Shown piece after piece: positions 51,494 through 64,000 of a stretch of 64,000 bases of DNA. Under the pieces are notes generated by a model. That model was not told the DNA's origin, made no database searches, and worked only from the letters and a program-made list of their open reading frames with translations. The translations under genes and the position numbers were made by a program. The number at the start of each line of letters is the position of its first letter. The stretch's first letter is position 1. The DNA comes from Clostridia bacterium. Lineage in GTDB: Bacteria; Bacillota; Clostridia; CAKSNL01; HGM11501. The DNA lies in assembly GCA_045545475.1 (NCBI GenBank), contig JAZQAZ010000047.1, forward strand, positions 1-64,000, read 5' to 3'.

Positions 51494-52498
51494 ATGGATT
51501 TGCTCAGAAAGCTTACAAGTGTCCGAGGCGTATCGGGGCATGAAAGTGCGGCAGGAGAGGTGTTTAAAGAGCTTTTATCTAAATACACCAAAGATATAAA
51601 AACCGATGCTTTGGGAAATATAACAGGAAAAATCTCCTCCGGAATTAAAAACGCAAAAAAACTTTTAATAGAGGCTCACATTGACGAACTGGGACTTATG
51701 ATAACAGGGGTAGAAGAACGCGGATTTTTGACCTTTACACCCATCGGAGGAACAGATATGAAAATTCTTCCGGGATGTGAGGTTACCGTTCACGGGAAAA
51801 AGGATATTTACGGCGTTATTGGTGCAAAGCCTCCACATCTTATAAAAGACGGAGAAGATAAGGGGCTTAACATAGATATTATGGCAATTGATACTGGGAT
51901 TTTCGACATAAAGGATTTTGTTTCCGTGGGGGATATTGCAACCTATAATGCAGGGTTTACACCTCTTTCCGGAGACTATGCGGCAGACCGTGCATTTGAC
52001 GACAGAGCGGGACTTGCTGTGTTGCTTAAGGCGTTGTCGATGATTGAAAAGCCTAAAATGGATGTATATGTGTCAGCTACTGTGGGAGAGGAACTTGGAA
52101 CACGTGGGGCAAGGTGTGTCGCATGGAATGTGAATCCCGATTATTCAATTTCTGTGGATGTAACGTTCGGAACTTCCGAAGGAAGCAGCGAGCAGAGCTT
52201 TGAGCTTTCAAAAGGACCTACGATTTGCATCAGTCCCAGCTTGTCCTTGGATTTTACGAAACAGCTTATGAAGCTTGCAGGGGAAAAGGAAATTTTATAT
52301 CAGACAGAAACCGAAGGGGGAAATACCGGCACTAACGCCTGGGCGGTGGCAAAAAATGCCGATAACTGCCGATGTGCCTTGGTCTCTATACCCATAAGAT
52401 ATATGCACTCGACCTGTGAAGTGATAAATATAAAGGACATAGAAAGTGCTGCAAAATTAATTGCTGCATTCTGCGAGGAGGGCGAGCTTGATGCTTAA
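51494..52498 (+). CDS. M42 family metallopeptidase (1 of 3)
   Basis: AHIDELG, FDDRAG, GEELG, RYMHS. Confidence 0.9.
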   Translation: MDLLRKLTSVRGVSGHESAAGEVFKELLSKYTKDIKTDALGNITGKISSGIKNAKKLLIEAHIDELGLMITGVEERGFLTFTPIGGTDMKILPGCEVTVHGKKDIYGVIGAKPPHLIKDGEDKGLNIDIMAIDTGIFDIKDFVSVGDIATYNAGFTPLSGDYAADRAFDDRAGLAVLLKALSMIEKPKMDVYVSATVGEELGTRGARCVAWNVNPDYSISVDVTFGTSEGSSEQSFELSKGPTICISPSLSLDFTKQLMKLAGEKEILYQTETEGGNTGTNAWAVAKNADNCRCALVSIPIRYMHSTCEVINIKDIESAAKLIAAFCEEGELDA

Positions 52499-53498
52499 AT
52501 TACTTACTGAAACAGACGGAGTATCAGGTTTCTGCTCGCCCATCAGAAAAGTGATACTGGACAACATTCCTGCAGGCGAAGTAACGGTTGATGCCCTGGG
52601 TAACATCATCGTATATAAAAAAGGAAAGTCTCAGGGAAAAAAGGTAATGTACTGTGCCCATATGGATGAGGTGGGCTTTATGGTTACCGGTATAACTGAT
52701 AAAGGATATATAAAATTCACAAGCTGCGGAGGAATCGACCCGCGTGTTATTGTTTCAAAGCGTGTGAGAATTGGTGAAAACAAGATTCCCGGCGTTATTG
52801 CGACAAAGGCTGTGCATTTGCAAAATGCCGATGAACGAAAAAAAGCAGCTGAAGAGAAAGGCCTTTCTGTAGATATTGGAGCATCCGATAAAGAGGAGGC
52901 AGAAAAGCTTGTGGCAATAGGAGACTATATTGCCTTTGATACAGACTTTTCGTACTTTGGCGATGACTCTATGAAGGGCAAGGCGTTGGATGACAGAGTC
53001 GGATGTGCCTGCCTTCTTAAAATGCTGGAAAAAGACTATCCTTATGATTTTTACGGCGTTTTTTCCACCTGCGAGGAAATAGGCGGAATCGGTGCAAGAG
53101 CGGCGGCTTCAAAAATAAGGCCGGATATGGCACTTGTTCTGGAAGGGACAACGGCATCAGATGTTTACGGATGCGAGGAAAGGGATTTTGTTACAAAACT
53201 CGGAAACGGCGTATGTATCCCTGTTCGTGACAGAAGCATGATAGCGAATCGCAAAATGGTGGAATTTTTGAAAAAATGTGCCTTTGAAGCAAATGTGAAA
53301 TGGCAATATAAATATGCGGCGACAGGCGGTACAGACGGTGGAGCAATTCATATAACCGGAGAAGGCATACCAACAGCGATATTGGCACTTCCATGCCGAT
53401 ATATTCATTCACCGGTCAGTGTGGCAAGCGTCAGCGACTACGAGGCGATGGTGAAACTTTCCGTAACTTTTGCGGAGAGAGCAATGGAAATATTATAA
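52491..53498 (+). CDS. M42 family metallopeptidase (2 of 3)
   Basis: AHMDEVG, LDDRVG, CEEIG, GGTDG, RYIHS. Confidence 0.9.
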   Translation: MLKLLTETDGVSGFCSPIRKVILDNIPAGEVTVDALGNIIVYKKGKSQGKKVMYCAHMDEVGFMVTGITDKGYIKFTSCGGIDPRVIVSKRVRIGENKIPGVIATKAVHLQNADERKKAAEEKGLSVDIGASDKEEAEKLVAIGDYIAFDTDFSYFGDDSMKGKALDDRVGCACLLKMLEKDYPYDFYGVFSTCEEIGGIGARAAASKIRPDMALVLEGTTASDVYGCEERDFVTKLGNGVCIPVRDRSMIANRKMVEFLKKCAFEANVKWQYKYAATGGTDGGAIHITGEGIPTAILALPCRYIHSPVSVASVSDYEAMVKLSVTFAERAMEIL

Positions 53499-53513
53499 TG
53501 GGAGGAACTTTTT

Positions 53514-54488
53514 ATGGAGCTACTTAAAAAACTTTGCGAAGCCTTTGGCCCTTCGGGATGCGAAACTGAAATTTCGGCCGTTATCGAAGAGGAGATGAGG
53601 CCTTATGCAGACGAAATATATTCTGATAACTTAGGAAACCTTATTTGCCATAAAAAGGGCACCGGTAAAAAGATAATGTATGCCGCTCATATGGACGAAA
53701 TAGGACTTATGGTCACGTTTATTGAAAAGACCGGTTACCTTCGCTGTGCACAAATCGGATACCTTCCGCCACATCTTTCGCTAAACCGTTTTGTAAAGTT
53801 TGAAAACGGCACTGTTGGAGTTGTGGCATATGAAAAGGAACATGAGGCAAATCTCCGTCAGGAAAAAGTGTTTATAGATATCGGAGCGAAGTCAAGAGAA
53901 GAAGCAGAAGAAAAGGTTTCTGTGGGTGATACCTGTAGCTTAATGTCTCACTTTACCGTAATGGGTGATAAGGTTTCGTCAAAAACTCTTGATAACAGAG
54001 CGTCATGCTATGCATTAATCCGTGCGGCAAAGGAAATTAAAACAGATAATGACATTTATTATGTATTTACAACCCAGGAGGAGGTAGGCCTTCGGGGAGC
54101 CGGCCCTGCTGCATTTAAAATAGAACCAGATTATGCGATATGTATTGATGTGACAATGAATGGGGATACTCCGGAATGCAACAAAAATTCCCTGCGTCTT
54201 GGTGGTGGTACGGCAATTAAGGTTATGGATCACTCAGTAATTACGGGGATTGAAGTAAGGAATAAGTTGATTTCACTTGCTAAAGAAAATGGTATAGCCT
54301 ATCAGATGGAAGTAATAACCGGGGGAGGAACAGATGCCGGAGCGATACATACCGTAAAGGGTGGTGTATTAACGGGAGCTGTTTCGATTCCCATGAGATA
54401 CATTCATTCGGCAACGGAAATGGCTGACAAAGGCGATATCGAAAATACGGTGAAGCTTATAACGGCTTTTGCCGAAACAACACTATAA
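53514..54488 (+). CDS. M42 family metallopeptidase (3 of 3)
   Basis: AHMDEIG, LDNRAS, QEEVG, GGTDAG, RYIHS. Confidence 0.9.
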   Translation: MELLKKLCEAFGPSGCETEISAVIEEEMRPYADEIYSDNLGNLICHKKGTGKKIMYAAHMDEIGLMVTFIEKTGYLRCAQIGYLPPHLSLNRFVKFENGTVGVVAYEKEHEANLRQEKVFIDIGAKSREEAEEKVSVGDTCSLMSHFTVMGDKVSSKTLDNRASCYALIRAAKEIKTDNDIYYVFTTQEEVGLRGAGPAAFKIEPDYAICIDVTMNGDTPECNKNSLRLGGGTAIKVMDHSVITGIEVRNKLISLAKENGIAYQMEVITGGGTDAGAIHTVKGGVLTGAVSIPMRYIHSATEMADKGDIENTVKLITAFAETTL

Positions 54489-56620: not shown

Positions 56621-56753
56621 TTGACAAAAGTGTGGGCATGTGTTATTATATTCAAGCACACCAAGTGGTTACAGAGGCGAAAAACTTAATAAAAAACTTT
56701 TTTCAAAAAAATGAAAAAAAGTTCTTGACAAACGGTTCTGATTATGGTATAAT
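56621..56753 (+). promoter_or_regulatory. tandem sigma-A promoters of the tRNA operon
   Basis: TTGACA(56621)-17-TATTAT and TTGACA(56725)-17-TATAAT, each with A-tracts upstream. Confidence 0.85.
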
Positions 56754-56777: not shown

Positions 56778-56853
56778 GGGAGCATAGCTCAGTTGGGAGA
56801 GCATCTGCCTTACAAGCAGAGGGTCATAGGTTCGAGCCCTATTGTTCCCACCA
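56778..56853 (+). tRNA. tRNA-Val (TAC)
   Basis: TCTGC-CTTACAA-GCAGA, 76 nt, CCA. Confidence 0.96.
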
Positions 56854-56860
56854 TTTTTTT

Positions 56861-56937
56861 GGCCTGGTAGTTCAGCTGGTTAGAACGCTAGCCTGTCACG
56901 CTAGAGGTCGTGGGTTCGAGTCCCATCCAGGTCGCCA
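56861..56937 (+). tRNA. tRNA-Asp (GTC)
   Basis: CTAGC-CTGTCAC-GCTAG, G73, CCA. Confidence 0.96.
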
Positions 56938-56942
56938 TTTTT

Positions 56943-57018
56943 GCCTCTGTAGCTCAGTTGGTAGAGCAAAGGACTGAAAATCCTTGTGTCACTGGTTCGA
57001 TTCCAGTCGGAGGCACCA
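56943..57018 (+). tRNA. tRNA-Phe (GAA)
   Basis: AAGGA-CTGAAAA-TCCTT, CCA. Confidence 0.96.
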
Positions 57019-57025
57019 GGTAAAT

Positions 57026-57100
57026 GCGGGAGTGGCTCAGTGGTAGAGCGTCACCTTGCCAAGGTGAACGTCGCGAGTTCGAATCTCGTCTTCCGCTCCA
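57026..57100 (+). tRNA. tRNA-Gly (GCC)
   Basis: TCACC-TTGCCAA-GGTGA, U73, CCA. Confidence 0.96.
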
Positions 57101-57148
57101 AAAACACAAAGGAGACGCGTCAGATTTGGTGCGTCGCTTTTGTTATAA

Positions 57149-57222
57149 GGCGCCATGGCCAAGTGGTAAGGCAAAGGTCTGCAACACCTATATCCCCAGT
57201 TCGAGTCTGGGTGGCGCCTCCA
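57149..57222 (+). tRNA. tRNA-Cys (GCA)
   Basis: GGCGCCA/TGGCGCC acceptor, AGGT-CTGCAAC-ACCT, U73, CCA. Confidence 0.95.
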
Positions 57223-57223
57223 G

Positions 57224-57256
57224 AAAAAAGACTTGTCAGTTGACAAGTCTTTTTTT
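57224..57256 (+). terminator. intrinsic terminator of tRNA operon
   Basis: AAAAAAGACTTGTCA-GT-TGACAAGTCTTTTTTT. Confidence 0.85.
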
Positions 57257-57432
57257 AATGAAATTTGCCTGCGTCAAGTGAAATACGCTACGCGTATGAA
57301 ATATTGCTTCGCAATGTGAAATATGCCTTGCGGCATATGAAAAGGCAAATTTTATTTCACATTTTTCTGTAAGAAAAATATTTCATAATCCGTAGGGTTA
57401 TTTCATATCAACGAAGTTGATATTTCATTAAA
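57254..57432. repeat. symmetric 'feather' hairpin array with 11-bp terminal inverted repeats
   Basis: TTTAATGAAAT...ATTTCATTAAA ends; five TGAAAW then four ATTTCA linkers separated by short hairpins. Confidence 0.9.
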
Positions 57433-57434
57433 TA

Positions 57435-57463
57435 TTTACATATTGCTAATTCTATGTTAGAAT
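57435..57463 (+). promoter_or_regulatory. probable sigma-A promoter of four-helix-bundle gene
   Basis: TTTACA-17-TAGAAT with extended TG. Confidence 0.65.
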
Positions 57464-57483: not shown

Positions 57484-57831
57484 ATGAAGGAAAACAAACT
57501 TATAGATTTATCTACGGATTTAGCAGTTAAAATTATAAAACTCTGTGAAACGATAAAAGGACATTATTCACTTGTAAATCAGTTAGAAAGAAGTTCTACA
57601 TCAATCGGGGCAAACATTCACGAAGCTAACTATGCTCACGGAAAGAACGATTTTATTGCAAAATTACAGATTGCTTTGAAAGAATGTTATGAAACAGAAT
57701 ATTGGCTCGAGCTTTTTGTAAAGTCAGAAATTTTAGATAGAGAAACTGCGAAAAATTTATATAATCAATGTGGTACAATTCGAAAAATGTTGATTTCTTC
57801 AATCAACACTGCAAAAAAGAACAGTAATTAG
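57484..57831 (+). CDS. four-helix bundle protein (23S rRNA IVS protein / Avd-like family)
   Basis: NQLERSSTSIGANIHEA, DFIAKLQIALKECYETEYWLEL; GAGGTG RBS. Confidence 0.92.
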   Translation: MKENKLIDLSTDLAVKIIKLCETIKGHYSLVNQLERSSTSIGANIHEANYAHGKNDFIAKLQIALKECYETEYWLELFVKSEILDRETAKNLYNQCGTIRKMLISSINTAKKNSN

Positions 57832-57851
57832 AGCTGGCATCTAAACCATTC

Positions 57852-57868
57852 GGCGCCGTCCAGAAAAA
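57852..57868 (+). repeat. degenerate duplicate of tRNA-Cys 3' end (att-like)
   Basis: GGCGCCGTCCAGAAAAA vs GGCGCCTCCAGAAAAA at 57213-57228 (one inserted G). Confidence 0.65.
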
Positions 57869-57872
57869 CAAG

Positions 57873-57970
57873 CACCATAAAACAGACTCGAACGAAGTCA
57901 TAGGAAAAAATGCGGAGCATTTTGACGTAGTTTTTCAAAACTGCGTTTTGAAAAATCGAGTCTGGGTGGC
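57873..57970. repeat. tRNA T-arm mirror element, copy 2 (Cys-matched)
   Basis: inverted CAGACTCGAAC (57883-57893), core GAAGTCATAGG plus two hairpins, direct TCGAGTCTGGGTGGC (57956-57970 = 57201-57215). Confidence 0.85.
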
Positions 57971-61568: not shown

Positions 61569-64000
61569 ATGAAGCATTTTTGTCAGGCAAAGGAATCGGT
61601 TATGGAATTTTTCAAAACCGATGAAAAGACGGGACTGAGTGAAGAAAGAGCAGAAAAACTTAAGGAAGAGTATGGTCTCAACAAATTAAAGGAAAAGAAA
61701 AAGAAAACAACAATGGAGCGTTTTCTTGACCAGTTCAAGGATGCAATGATACTTATTTTGATTGCTGCCGCAATTGTTTCATTCGTTGTAATTTGTGTCG
61801 AAAAAAACTGGGGAGAGCTTTTCGAGCCGGCACTTATCGTATTGATTGTTATCTTAAATGCGGTTATGGGCGTGTACCAAGAGGGTAAGGCAGAAAAGGC
61901 ACTAGATGCACTTAAGAGTATGTCTGCACCCCACGCAAGAGTAATCCGTGGCGGCGAAGAAAAAATCATTGATGCAAAGGACCTTGTGCCCGGGGATATA
62001 ATCCGCCTTGAAGCGGGAGATTTTGTGCCTGCGGATGCAAGACTTCTTCACAGTGCAGGCTTAAAATCGGAAGAATCCGCTCTCACAGGAGAATCTGTTC
62101 CTTCGGAAAAGGATTATCTTGCAGAGGTTGGGGAAGATGCTCCCATTGGCGACAGATTAAATATGGTTTATTCCGGATGCAGCATTACTTACGGAACAGC
62201 GACTGCTGTTGTTACCGCAACTGGTATGGATACCGAAATGGGGATGATTGCAAATCTTCTTGATAACGAAGATGAGGGACAGACTCCGCTTCAGCAAAAA
62301 CTTGCCCAGCTCGGTAAATATCTTGGAATTATGGCACTTGCAGCTTGTGCAATCATATTTTTTGTGGGGCTTACAAACGGAATAGCAGTACTTGAAATCT
62401 TTATGACTGCGGTTTCTCTTGCTGTATCGGCAATTCCTGAGGGACTTCCTGCCATTGTTACCATTGTGCTTTCAATCGGAGTACAGCGTATGGTAAAGAA
62501 AAATGCTCTTATCCGTAAGCTTCCTGCGGTTGAAACATTGGGCGGAGCATCTGTTATATGTTCGGATAAAACTGGAACGCTTACACAAAACCGTATGACT
62601 CTTACAAAGGCATATGTGGACGGCTTTTCTGAGACGGAAGGCATAAGCACTAACAACACCGAAGCGGTAAGAAAGCTTCTTATGTTAGGGGCACTTTGCT
62701 GTGACGGATCGGTTGTATTTGATGGTGATGAAGAAAAGCATATCGGCGACCCTACAGAAACTGCCATCGTTCTTGCGGCACATAAAAACGGTATGCCGAA
62801 GGAAAAAATTAATGAAAAGTTTCCTCGTCTTGCTGAAATTCCCTTTGACTCCGACAGAAAACTTATGTCAACCGTAAATCTCATGGACGGCAGAAAGATA
62901 GTAATCGTAAAGGGTGCCTTTGATATGATGGCAGAAAGGTGCGTAAAGGGAAATCTCAAAGCGGCGAAAAACTTCACAGAAGCTATGAGCAAAGACGCTT
63001 TAAGAGTTTTGGCAATAGGATATAAGGAAATTGACGAAGTACCCGAAAATCCCACATCCGAAGCTCTTGAAAACGGACTTACATTTATGGGACTCGTAGG
63101 TATGATTGACCCACCGAGACCCGAAGCGAAGGATGCGGTGGCACTGTGTAGAAGAGCCGGAATCAAGCCGGTTATGATTACAGGAGACCACGTTGTTACT
63201 GCCTCCGCAATCGCAAAAGAGCTTGGAATTCTTTCGGAGGGCGACAAGGCGATTACAGGAAGCGAACTTGACGCAATGACCGACAGAGAGCTGGATGAGC
63301 AGGTTGAAAACATTTCGGTTTATGCAAGAGTATCTCCCGAAAATAAAATAAGAATAGTTAAGGCGTGGCAGAGAAAAGATAAGGTTGTATCAATGACAGG
63401 TGATGGAGTAAACGATGCTCCTGCCCTTAAAGCTGCCGACATCGGCTGTGCTATGGGTATTACAGGCACAGATGTTGCAAAGGGTGCATCGGATATGACT
63501 CTCACGGACGATAACTTTGCAACCATAGTTGATGCTGTGAGAGAGGGCAGAGGCATTTACGAAAACATCAAAAAGGTTGTCGGATTTTTACTTGGGACCA
63601 ATATCGGCGAGGTAATAACCGTGTTTATGGCAATGCTTTTGTGGCATAAAACACCCCTTCTTTCTATGCAGTTACTTTGGATAAACCTTGTTACAGACTC
63701 ACTTCCCGCTATTGCTCTCGGGATGGAGGCTGTTGAAAGCGACGTAATGGATAAAGCACCCAAGCCGAAAAACGAAGGTATCTTTGCTGGCGGTCTTGGC
63801 ATCCGTGTGATACTTCAAGGTATTATGTTTGCAGTTCTTACCCTTTTCGGATTTAAGATGGGAGAAAATGTGACAGGAACATTGGAAGGCGGCCAGACAA
63901 TGGCGTTTATGATACTTGCCCTTTCCCAGGTTGTTCAGAGCTTTAATATGAGGAGTGAACATTCTCTCTTTAATATCGGAATGTTTTCAAATAAAAAGTT
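61569..64000 (+). CDS. P-type (P2A) cation-transporting ATPase, YoaB-like; 3' end outside window
   Basis: read from ATG 61569: MKHFCQAKES..., ESALTGES, AIPEGL, ICSDKTGTLT, GDPTE, MITGD, MTGDGVNDAPAL; absent from ORF track because no stop codon is reached. Confidence 0.93.
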   Translation, partial: MKHFCQAKESVMEFFKTDEKTGLSEERAEKLKEEYGLNKLKEKKKKTTMERFLDQFKDAMILILIAAAIVSFVVICVEKNWGELFEPALIVLIVILNAVMGVYQEGKAEKALDALKSMSAPHARVIRGGEEKIIDAKDLVPGDIIRLEAGDFVPADARLLHSAGLKSEESALTGESVPSEKDYLAEVGEDAPIGDRLNMVYSGCSITYGTATAVVTATGMDTEMGMIANLLDNEDEGQTPLQQKLAQLGKYLGIMALAACAIIFFVGLTNGIAVLEIFMTAVSLAVSAIPEGLPAIVTIVLSIGVQRMVKKNALIRKLPAVETLGGASVICSDKTGTLTQNRMTLTKAYVDGFSETEGISTNNTEAVRKLLMLGALCCDGSVVFDGDEEKHIGDPTETAIVLAAHKNGMPKEKINEKFPRLAEIPFDSDRKLMSTVNLMDGRKIVIVKGAFDMMAERCVKGNLKAAKNFTEAMSKDALRVLAIGYKEIDEVPENPTSEALENGLTFMGLVGMIDPPRPEAKDAVALCRRAGIKPVMITGDHVVTASAIAKELGILSEGDKAITGSELDAMTDRELDEQVENISVYARVSPENKIRIVKAWQRKDKVVSMTGDGVNDAPALKAADIGCAMGITGTDVAKGASDMTLTDDNFATIVDAVREGRGIYENIKKVVGFLLGTNIGEVITVFMAMLLWHKTPLLSMQLLWINLVTDSLPAIALGMEAVESDVMDKAPKPKNEGIFAGGLGIRVILQGIMFAVLTLFGFKMGENVTGTLEGGQTMAFMILALSQVVQSFNMRSEHSLFNIGMFSNKK

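Follow-up and report, generated by a model that had tools for sequence, protein, structure and literature searches.

The array and its neighborhood

The 64,000-nt window analyzed here (positions 1–64,000 of contig JAZQAZ010000047.1, assembly GCA_045545475.1, Clostridia) contains, at 57254–57432, a composite element in which short repeated words alternate with small hairpins. It lies behind a tRNA gene cluster and ahead of a gene for a four-helix-bundle protein (PF05635/TIGR02436), and it is a member, with conserved folding, of the Gut-1 family (Rfam RF01706). Its parts and neighbors are listed below, with + denoting the strand of the tRNAs and the downstream gene.

57254–57432, +: whole composite element ("feather")
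57257–57270, +: 5' strand of helix P1, AATGAAATTTGCCT (inverted pair of 14 nt, 93%)
57263–57279, +: H0, a weakened local hairpin whose 5' arm can alternatively pair with the center (P1)
57276–57348, +: left arm, Rfam Gut-1 match of 66.3 bits, with GAA inside RTGAAAT heptamers between hairpins
57283–57297, 57301–57317 and 57321–57338, +: left-arm hairpins H1, H2 and H3
57343–57356, +: 3' strand of P1, AGGCAAATTTTATT, in the center
57349–57430, −: right arm, Gut-1 according to Rfam, 50.3 bits, with ATTTCAY heptamers between hairpins
57361–57379, 57385–57401 and 57405–57423: right-arm hairpins H4, H5 and H6
57224–57255, no strand assigned: hairpin T1, a 14-bp stem flanked by an A-run and a T-run, resembling a two-way intrinsic terminator
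56725–56753, +: promoter of the tRNA operon, TTGACA-17-TATAAT with TG, 12 of 12 consensus matches
56778–57222, +: tRNA cluster Val, Asp, Phe, Gly, Cys, ahead of the element
57435–57463, +: promoter of the four-helix-bundle gene, TTTACA-17-TAGAAT with TG, beginning 6 nt past the last linker
57484–57831, +: PF05635/TIGR02436 four-helix-bundle gene, 115 aa (Pfam E 4.2e-27, TIGR02436 E 2.2e-30)

Both Rfam matches lie above the curated Gut-1 gathering cut-off of 50 bits, and in the model alignment the three stems and the UGAAAU/GAA linkers are present in both arms. The array matches a described Rfam family, an outcome that the initial annotation itself had named as speaking against it, and the claim to novelty of kind fails. 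Gut-1 is one of 104 motifs reported by Weinberg et al. (2010; PMC2864571), whose Table 1 enters it as RNA "Y", cis-regulatory "n", switch "n" and "human gut only"; in the part of that paper drawn on here, its role is listed as unknown. The window element shares with it the three short hairpins, the UGAAAU linkers and a gut Clostridia-type sequence. No paper linking Gut-1 to PF05635 or to tRNA operons was found in the literature covered, supplementary files of the 2010 paper excepted.

The left half of the array carries TGAAAT or TGAAAA on the top strand, starting at 57259, 57279, 57297, 57317 and 57338, and the right half carries ATTTCA (TGAAAW on the bottom strand) at 57354, 57380, 57400 and 57422, giving five plus four heptamer linkers spaced by hairpins. 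There are 257 TGAAAW in the window on both strands, or about 0.7 per 179 bp, and nine in the array would occur by chance with a probability of about 1e-7 (Poisson estimate). The end arms, 57254–57264 and 57422–57432, are complementary over 11 nt at 100%. This terminal inverted repeat is peculiar to the window copy and, in part, to one on G000:C4 (G000 is the window's own genome, a 95%-complete assembly; other G numbers are relatives or other genomes, C numbers contigs and L numbers loci); other copies pair only GAAAT with ATTTC at their ends. The words, the inverted repeat and the five hairpins quoted in the initial annotation are all present in the sequence, and ATAATCC-GTA-GGGTTAT (57385–57401) adds a further hairpin. 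Loop sequences in the left half are TAC, TTC and TTGC; those in the right half are GTA, GTA and GAA. Folding of both DNA strands, proposed at the outset as a check, was far better than for shuffled sequences, at −37.2 kcal/mol for the plus strand (z −7.66, with 0 of 200 shuffles as good) and −35.3 kcal/mol for the minus strand (z −6.54).

With tRNA-Cys ending at 57222, T1 at 57224–57255 and the next promoter at 57435–57463, the array lies between the putative tRNA terminator and that promoter, as had been described. It is not the 5' untranslated region of the next gene, again in line with the earlier description, because a conserved promoter separates the two. A T1-type hairpin is found immediately 5' of the element in every parsed copy of the family. 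T1 itself was not listed by the terminator scan, probably because its T-run is counted into the stem, whose 14 bp include the A and T runs.

Four metatranscriptome runs contain small shares of the stretch as contigs. At 90% likeness or more these cover 57202–57363 at low summed depth (by run, X1 55, 29 and 19; X2 3.5–6; X3 1–10), and run X2 alone extends to 57471. The contigs show neither strand, ends nor organism, so nothing is drawn from them on expression.

Architecture, pairing and strand of the family

Rfam gives 14 Gut-1 matches in G000 and 108 in 17 of 41 relatives. Where matches are adjacent, 18 of 21 pairs are convergent, always with a stronger arm beside a weaker one. Fifty-seven full-length copies were parsed, with six Rfam matches left out; they are about 165–185 nt long and have a single shared architecture. 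A strong hairpin, usually the tRNA terminator, is followed by CA(A/G)Y, left hairpins H0–H3 with heptamer linkers, the center, and right hairpins H4–H6 separated by the reverse-complement heptamer, with four to five linkers and three to four hairpins on the left and four linkers and three hairpins on the right. Linkers within an arm are identical, and the right word is the reverse complement of the left one. The paired types are GTGAAAT/ATTTCAC, GTGATAT/ATATCAC, GCGATAT/ATATCGC, GTGAAGT/ACTTCAC, ATGAAATC/GATTTCAT, GCTAAAT/ATTTAGC and AATGATG/CATCAT; they vary among copies, even in one genome, and left and right always match. Nine loci in G000 were found with a hidden Markov model (HMM) of the element, and two more have other linker types. 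The latter are two-armed elements at G000:C18 ~1700–1915 (GCTAAAT/ATTTAGC) and G000:C24 ~61990–62200 (−) (AATGATG/CATCAT), both missed by Rfam Gut-1 and both ahead of PF05635 genes, the other two of this genome.

The fixed arm order and the count of four plus three hairpins in 57 copies suggest that the arm pairs form one unit rather than separate arms. The Rfam model has 77 positions and describes one arm, whereas the window unit is about 175 nt long with two mirror arms; the model covers only half of the unit, and the other half has probably been given the wrong strand. Also beyond the model are a fourth left hairpin (H0, weakened in the window but intact in its counterpart on G000:C4, ATTTGCC-TAT-GGCAAGT), the long-range helix P1, the linker types that it misses, and the constant position, with a tRNA terminator on one side and a PF05635 gene on the other.

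Some copies depart from this plan or have other features nearby. At G011:C10:49518–50156 (L017/L033) the whole two-armed element is present in three tandem copies with a 230-nt period, each including part of the terminator hairpin. G039, from another family of the class, has left-arm-only GTGATAT arrays (L020, L036, L072) with their own one-way intrinsic terminator at the end, resembling stand-alone small RNA genes. The sequence GGCATCTAAACCATTCGG is found downstream of several elements, before terminators (window 57837–57854, G000:C3:989, C9:1819(−) and C42:2476), and the related TGCATCTATTTTGTAGC follows other copies; the motif is lacking behind 79 of the 80 gene-bearing cassettes described below. 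GCATCTA was considered as a conserved 3' boundary and rejected, as it follows several gene-less copies but just one of the 80 gene-bearing cassettes. An incomplete OLE RNA (L025, G004:C21, 2881–3072, +; 163.5 bits), present as its 5' part because the locus stops there, was noted ~1.3 kb away from a Gut-1 element in a genome belonging to the same genus.

Pairing was followed in two sets of sequences. The 80 PF05635 loci yielded 73 distinct full-length elements, and the MAFFT alignment A2 consists of 72 of these (without L113) and the window element. A canonical set of 38 was obtained from the 57 parsed copies by removing 17 truncated or atypical ones by hand and then identical sequences. A mixed-linker MAFFT alignment, A1, was out of register at its 5' end and was excluded from the counts. 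RNAalifold on A2 recovered P1 and H4, H5 and H6, with changes on both sides in 22 of 27 pairs. Paired cells amount to 97.3%, against 76.0% in shuffled alignments (as high in 0 of 500 shuffles) and at most 56.5% in a slid-partner control. H1–H3 were not resolved in A2, but parsing gave 112 distinct hairpins whose inner pairs are 511 Watson-Crick and 14 other, the parser having rejected 28 inter-linker segments. Hairpins and P1 are maintained through compensatory changes, and the initial expectation that homologs would keep the hairpins is borne out among the 73.

P1 is present with 8–16 bp in 37 of the 38 canonical copies, in at least nine sequence versions (the search was limited to the 5' end and the center). 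The stretch up to and including the H0 5' arm is complementary to the center with all linker types, and this arm also fits the H0 3' arm, such that P1 and H0 compete; forced P1 and forced H0 folds lie within 3 kcal/mol of each other in 14 of 35 copies. Free RNA folds of the 38 copies contain P1 in 11 and pairing of left with right linkers in 26. Such pairing is the "spine" with side branches proposed in the initial annotation, which is thus seen among free folds but is absent from the RNAalifold structure of the 73 homologs. Fine covariation gave nothing decisive for a fixed spine register, the right linkers being near-uniform, and left-linker variants (GTTATAT, GTGGTAT; GTGATAT-type copies) are mostly uncompensated on the right. 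As modeled, the linker spine would be one of two competing folds.

The signals of strand are in conflict and do not divide single-stranded or cruciform DNA from RNA. In every hairpin the linker-adjacent pair is A-U or G:U when each arm is read toward the center, with G:U to A:C counts of 73:0 in the left arm and, on its own strand, 84:0 in the right. The opposite reading, outward from the center, is favored by inner stems of the right arm, whose plus-strand counts are 15 G:U vs. 2 A:C (20 G:U cells vs. 1 A:C in A2); inner pairs of the left arm have 1 G:U vs. 10 A:C on that strand, mostly at the third pair beside a conserved linker A. The P1 terminal pair, also on the plus strand, is G:U in 40 and G-C in 33 (n = 73). 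For the right arm, Rfam's assignment to the minus strand leans mainly on the linker; the inner-stem G:U pairs and GNA loops of this arm fit the plus strand better. Loop counts are TTC 24, TGC 13, TCC 8, TAC 7, TTAC 7 and TTGC 7 in left arms and GAA 26, GCA 11, AAA 9, GTAA 8 and GTA 6 in right arms, or UNC on the left and GNA/GNRA on the right across the family. With loops so sharply polarized between arms, the strand-polarized GNA loops noticed in the window are a true family trait. Typical features of RNA include GNRA tetraloops and tandem G-A pairs, and C-GAA-G and GC-GAA-GC mini-hairpins are unusually stable in DNA.

PF05635 genes and related systems

A scan of one genome per species gave 80 close relatives of the window protein (77–97% identity) in Oscillospiraceae, Acutalibacteraceae, Ruminococcus and unclassified Clostridia metagenome-assembled genomes, mostly from ruminant guts. 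In 78 of these 80 loci, each from a different species genome, the element HMM detects a same-strand copy immediately upstream; in one of the remaining two the upstream sequence is too short. A plus-strand tRNA lies upstream in 62 of the 80, with 15 identities represented and a median of 265 nt separating the tRNA end and the start codon. Between element and gene there is always a −10 box, in many cases with TG, and sequences past the stop codon are unrelated among loci. All four PF05635 genes of G000 are preceded by an element, two of them with linker types missed by Rfam, and of its 23 tRNA clusters, 5 have an element no more than 120 nt downstream. Counted from the elements, 12 of the 57 have a PF05635 gene within ~60 nt downstream. 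Among the 41 relatives, PF05635 is found in 15 of 17 Gut-1 genomes vs. 5 of 24 others, counts that overstate significance because kin are not independent; with families sampled once (27), the figures are 4 of 4 with Gut-1 and 5 of 23 without (hypergeometric 0.007). The fixed cassette of tRNA operon, array and four-helix-bundle gene suggests the PF05635 protein as the partner of the array. Protein identity to the window copy is 74–97% for loci with GTGAAAT linkers, 66% for ATGAAATC, 58% for GCTAAAT, 54% for AATGATG and 52% for GTGATAT, and by this comparison linker and protein sequence diverge together.

Two other regularities were considered and rejected. Between the last linker and the −10 box, spacings fall into classes of 9, 23, 26 and 29 nt, without helical phasing. 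Integration by duplication of the tRNA 3' part was dropped as a rule because such a repeat is found in just 2 of 62 loci. A 15-nt copy of the tRNA-Cys T-arm is located at 57956–57970 in the window, ~735 nt downstream of the gene. At G000:C4:20507–20525, 19 nt of the tRNA-Trp 3' end are repeated exactly, along with a second terminator, ~200 nt past the intact tRNA and just before another element; these partial copies hint that tRNA 3' ends were rearranged in the past. Elsewhere in the window, a terminator-like hairpin with a T-run lies at 57114–57135 within the tRNA cluster, between tRNA-Gly and tRNA-Cys. Ahead of the region, 51494–54488 holds three successive paralogous open reading frames (ORFs) of 334, 345 and 324 aa with similar N-termini, judged peptidase-like by eye.

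In a wider survey, 121 Bacillota genomes were scanned, with 60 PF05635 matches in 28 genomes, and 24 upstream regions in other Bacillota families were examined. A lag of 7 nt is the best period upstream of PF05635 in 11 of these 24, and 7-nt self-identity is at least 0.85 in 7 of the 24, compared to 3 of 120 random windows from the same loci. Several upstream regions (in G058, G114 and G141) have both forward and reverse-complement heptamer runs. Two loci, L173 (G104:C45) and L174 (G120:C1), have PF05635 ORFs inside 23S rRNA genes with GGTTAGA-like heptamers ahead of them; these are classic intervening sequences, from two other Bacillota families. At L178 (G092:C1:402344–405661) a PF05635 ORF and 7-nt repeats lie inside an RNase P RNA gene, where the class-A match (1229–2003, −) spans 775 nt vs. 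367 in the model, as if the RNase P RNA carried an intervening sequence. One further PF05635 gene of the survey is located behind a tRNA. A long run was seen at L170 (G145:C4:254092–257394), with at least 380 nt of unbroken 7-nt repeats (GACAGGA, GATAGGA, GCTAGGA, GTCAGGA) up to the PF05635 start; G055 has a shorter run of the same words.

Several known systems invite comparison. The repetitive extragenic palindromes (REP) of enterobacteria and their bacterial interspersed mosaic elements (BIME) are multi-copy intergenic hairpins located after genes, often as inverted pairs, and are thought to affect transcripts or DNA topology; REP copies in one genome are near-identical, and their partner is a RAYT transposase. 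In the window family, by contrast, stems differ and covary, linkers are conserved and the partner gene is PF05635. TRAP, a ring-shaped RNA binder of spaced GAG/UAG triplets, serves as a working analogy only: identical short words at regular spacing would suit one oligomer, but the heptamers here are spaced by 13–19-nt hairpins, and membership is not claimed. Avd is a small basic oligomer, a pentamer, that acts on structured nucleic acid beside its own gene. It belongs to diversity-generating retroelements (DGRs) and to the same four-helix-bundle family as the window protein, and PF05635 is treated as Avd-like in the part of a DGR review drawn on here (PMC10053308). The closest solved relative is 2rld, with five chains in the entry. 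Unlike a DGR, the window locus has no reverse transcriptase nearby: the sole RVT_1 match in G000 (G000:C10:141866–142417) is far from all four PF05635 genes, and no template/variable repeat pair was seen.

Another comparison is with the 23S rRNA intervening sequence of Coxiella burnetii. According to the sections of PMC4990558 consulted, three to four GACAGAT repeats precede its S23p ORF and it is excised by RNase III. It shares with the window cassette the protein family, heptamers just upstream of the ORF, a location within a stable-RNA transcription unit, and complementary flanks that form a stem. The window cassette differs in lying behind tRNA-Cys and its putative terminator rather than within an rRNA helix or any RNA gene, and in its hairpin-spaced, mirrored heptamers and a gene with its own promoter.

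Possible roles

We tentatively favor an explanation, though we would put it at somewhat less than even, in which the heptamer array binds the four-helix-bundle protein in single-stranded form. The PF05635 protein, probably an oligomeric ring as in its relatives, would recognize the heptamers, and the hairpins would act as rigid spacers between them. The single strand could be read-through RNA that starts at the strong tRNA promoter, or locally extruded DNA, and the P1/H0 alternative may decide which heptamers are exposed. Element and gene would together form a self-contained cassette lodging in stable-RNA transcription units, with gene-less copies of the element served in trans. An iterated protein-binding site had already been one of the suggestions in the initial annotation; the tight linkage to PF05635 lends this circumstantial support.

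A number of observations weigh against this explanation. No PF05635 gene is adjacent in 45 of the 57 elements; two Gut-1 genomes, G003 (75% complete) and G013 (94% complete), have no PF05635 match; and five genomes carry PF05635 without Gut-1. An element of G000 with GTTATAT/ATATCAC-type linkers (C20:73842–73988) has no PF05635 gene of the matching clade in the 95%-complete assembly. The co-divergence of linkers and protein is equally expected from plain co-inheritance of a cassette, and the covariation of hairpins speaks for a folded single strand and is silent on any protein. The unphased spacing between the last linker and the −10 box and the left-arm-only arrays of G039, which with their own intrinsic terminator look like plain small RNA genes, count against it as well.

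The alternatives overlap in part with the favored explanation. One is a single RNA of the plus strand, transcribed either past the tRNA terminator or from a promoter of its own, that switches between the P1 fold and a zipped "feather" of H0 and linker helices. Acting in cis, it would provide a site for processing, protect 3' ends, or insulate the next gene from the very strong tRNA promoter. The dual fit of the H0 5' arm with all linker types, the near-equal energies in 14 of 35 copies, the free folds divided between P1 (11) and linker pairing (26 of 38), and the plus-strand P1 terminal pairs (40 G:U, 33 G-C) all suit it, as do the placement at tRNA terminators (5 of 23 clusters in G000, 62 of 80 related loci) and the excision by RNase III reported for Coxiella (PMC4990558). 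We consider it unlikely. The UNC loops and the few inner wobbles of the left arm (10 A:C vs. 1 G:U) suit the minus strand better, the GTGATAT-type left-linker variants are uncompensated on the right, and an insulator needs no concerted change of linker type. Two independent convergent small RNAs, a left-arm Gut-1 read rightwards and a degenerate right-arm Gut-1 read leftwards, both unlinked to the neighboring protein, would account for the Rfam matches on opposite strands and for the absence of linker-adjacent A:C on each arm's own strand (73:0 and 84:0). The G039 arrays with their one-way terminator, a G009:C18 copy with a TTGCCA-17-TATAAT promoter just upstream, and the entry of Gut-1 as certainly RNA by Weinberg et al. 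(PMC2864571) agree with this. Against it, scanning the minus strand gave no promoter-like site for the right arm, the center lacks a terminator, P1 joins the 5' end to the center, the right arm has inner stems (15 G:U vs. 2 A:C) and GNA/GNRA loops that favor the plus strand, and arm order and the four-plus-three hairpins are fixed in 57 copies; two separate RNAs seem improbable.

A device acting at the DNA level would be closest to the single-stranded or cruciform scaffold first proposed: supercoiling would extrude the palindromes or the whole dyad, placing GNA-loop hairpins on a different strand in each arm, as a scaffold or operator by the next promoter. The dyad with its GNA/GNRA loops, on the top strand at right and the bottom strand at left, is found family-wide, C-GAA-G and GC-GAA-GC loops are frequent, the last linker adjoins the −35 region, and both DNA strands fold better than shuffled ones. 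The strong asymmetry of G:U and A:C would be unexpected if both strands extruded together, GNRA tetraloops and tandem G-A pairs are present, spacing to the promoter shows no helical phasing, and stems of 5–9 bp, as here, extrude poorly, which leaves this possibility quite doubtful too. A decaying miniature mobile repeat, similar to REP or to miniature inverted-repeat transposable elements, functionless and happening to target tRNA-gene terminators, would fit the copy number in G000 (nine HMM loci and two of other linker types), the at least 15 tRNA identities with unrelated downstream flanks, the tandem triplication in G011:C10 and the 11-bp terminal inverted repeat of the window copy. Copies are not near-identical, however, those of G000 differing in most stems yet keeping their pairing; terminal inverted repeats are conserved over only 5 nt, no rule of target duplication is seen (2 of 62 loci), and none of the loci examined has a transposase linked to the element. 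We regard this explanation as very improbable.

Extended to the family, binding of heptamers by the PF05635 protein leads to a broader proposal that we hold to be possible but doubtful. PF05635 proteins outside DGRs would be sequence-specific binders of heptamer arrays, and their cassettes would have colonized tRNA 3' flanks, 23S helices and RNase P RNA. Gut-1 would then be the elaborated, hairpin-spaced and two-armed array of one lineage, in which paralogs may have co-evolved with their own words to give orthogonal pairs within a genome.

Gut-1 as a motif was already known; the two-arm unit with P1, the loop polarity, the position at tRNA terminators and the linkage to PF05635 are new. The half-unit Rfam model matters for the annotation of gut Oscillospirales genomes. 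Gut-1 has been an orphan motif since 2009–2010, and PF05635 proteins outside DGRs have been orphans for as long as 23S intervening sequences have been described. With their coupling, a heptamer word that changes along with the protein, and heptamers at other PF05635 loci, two "function unknown" entries become one binding question.

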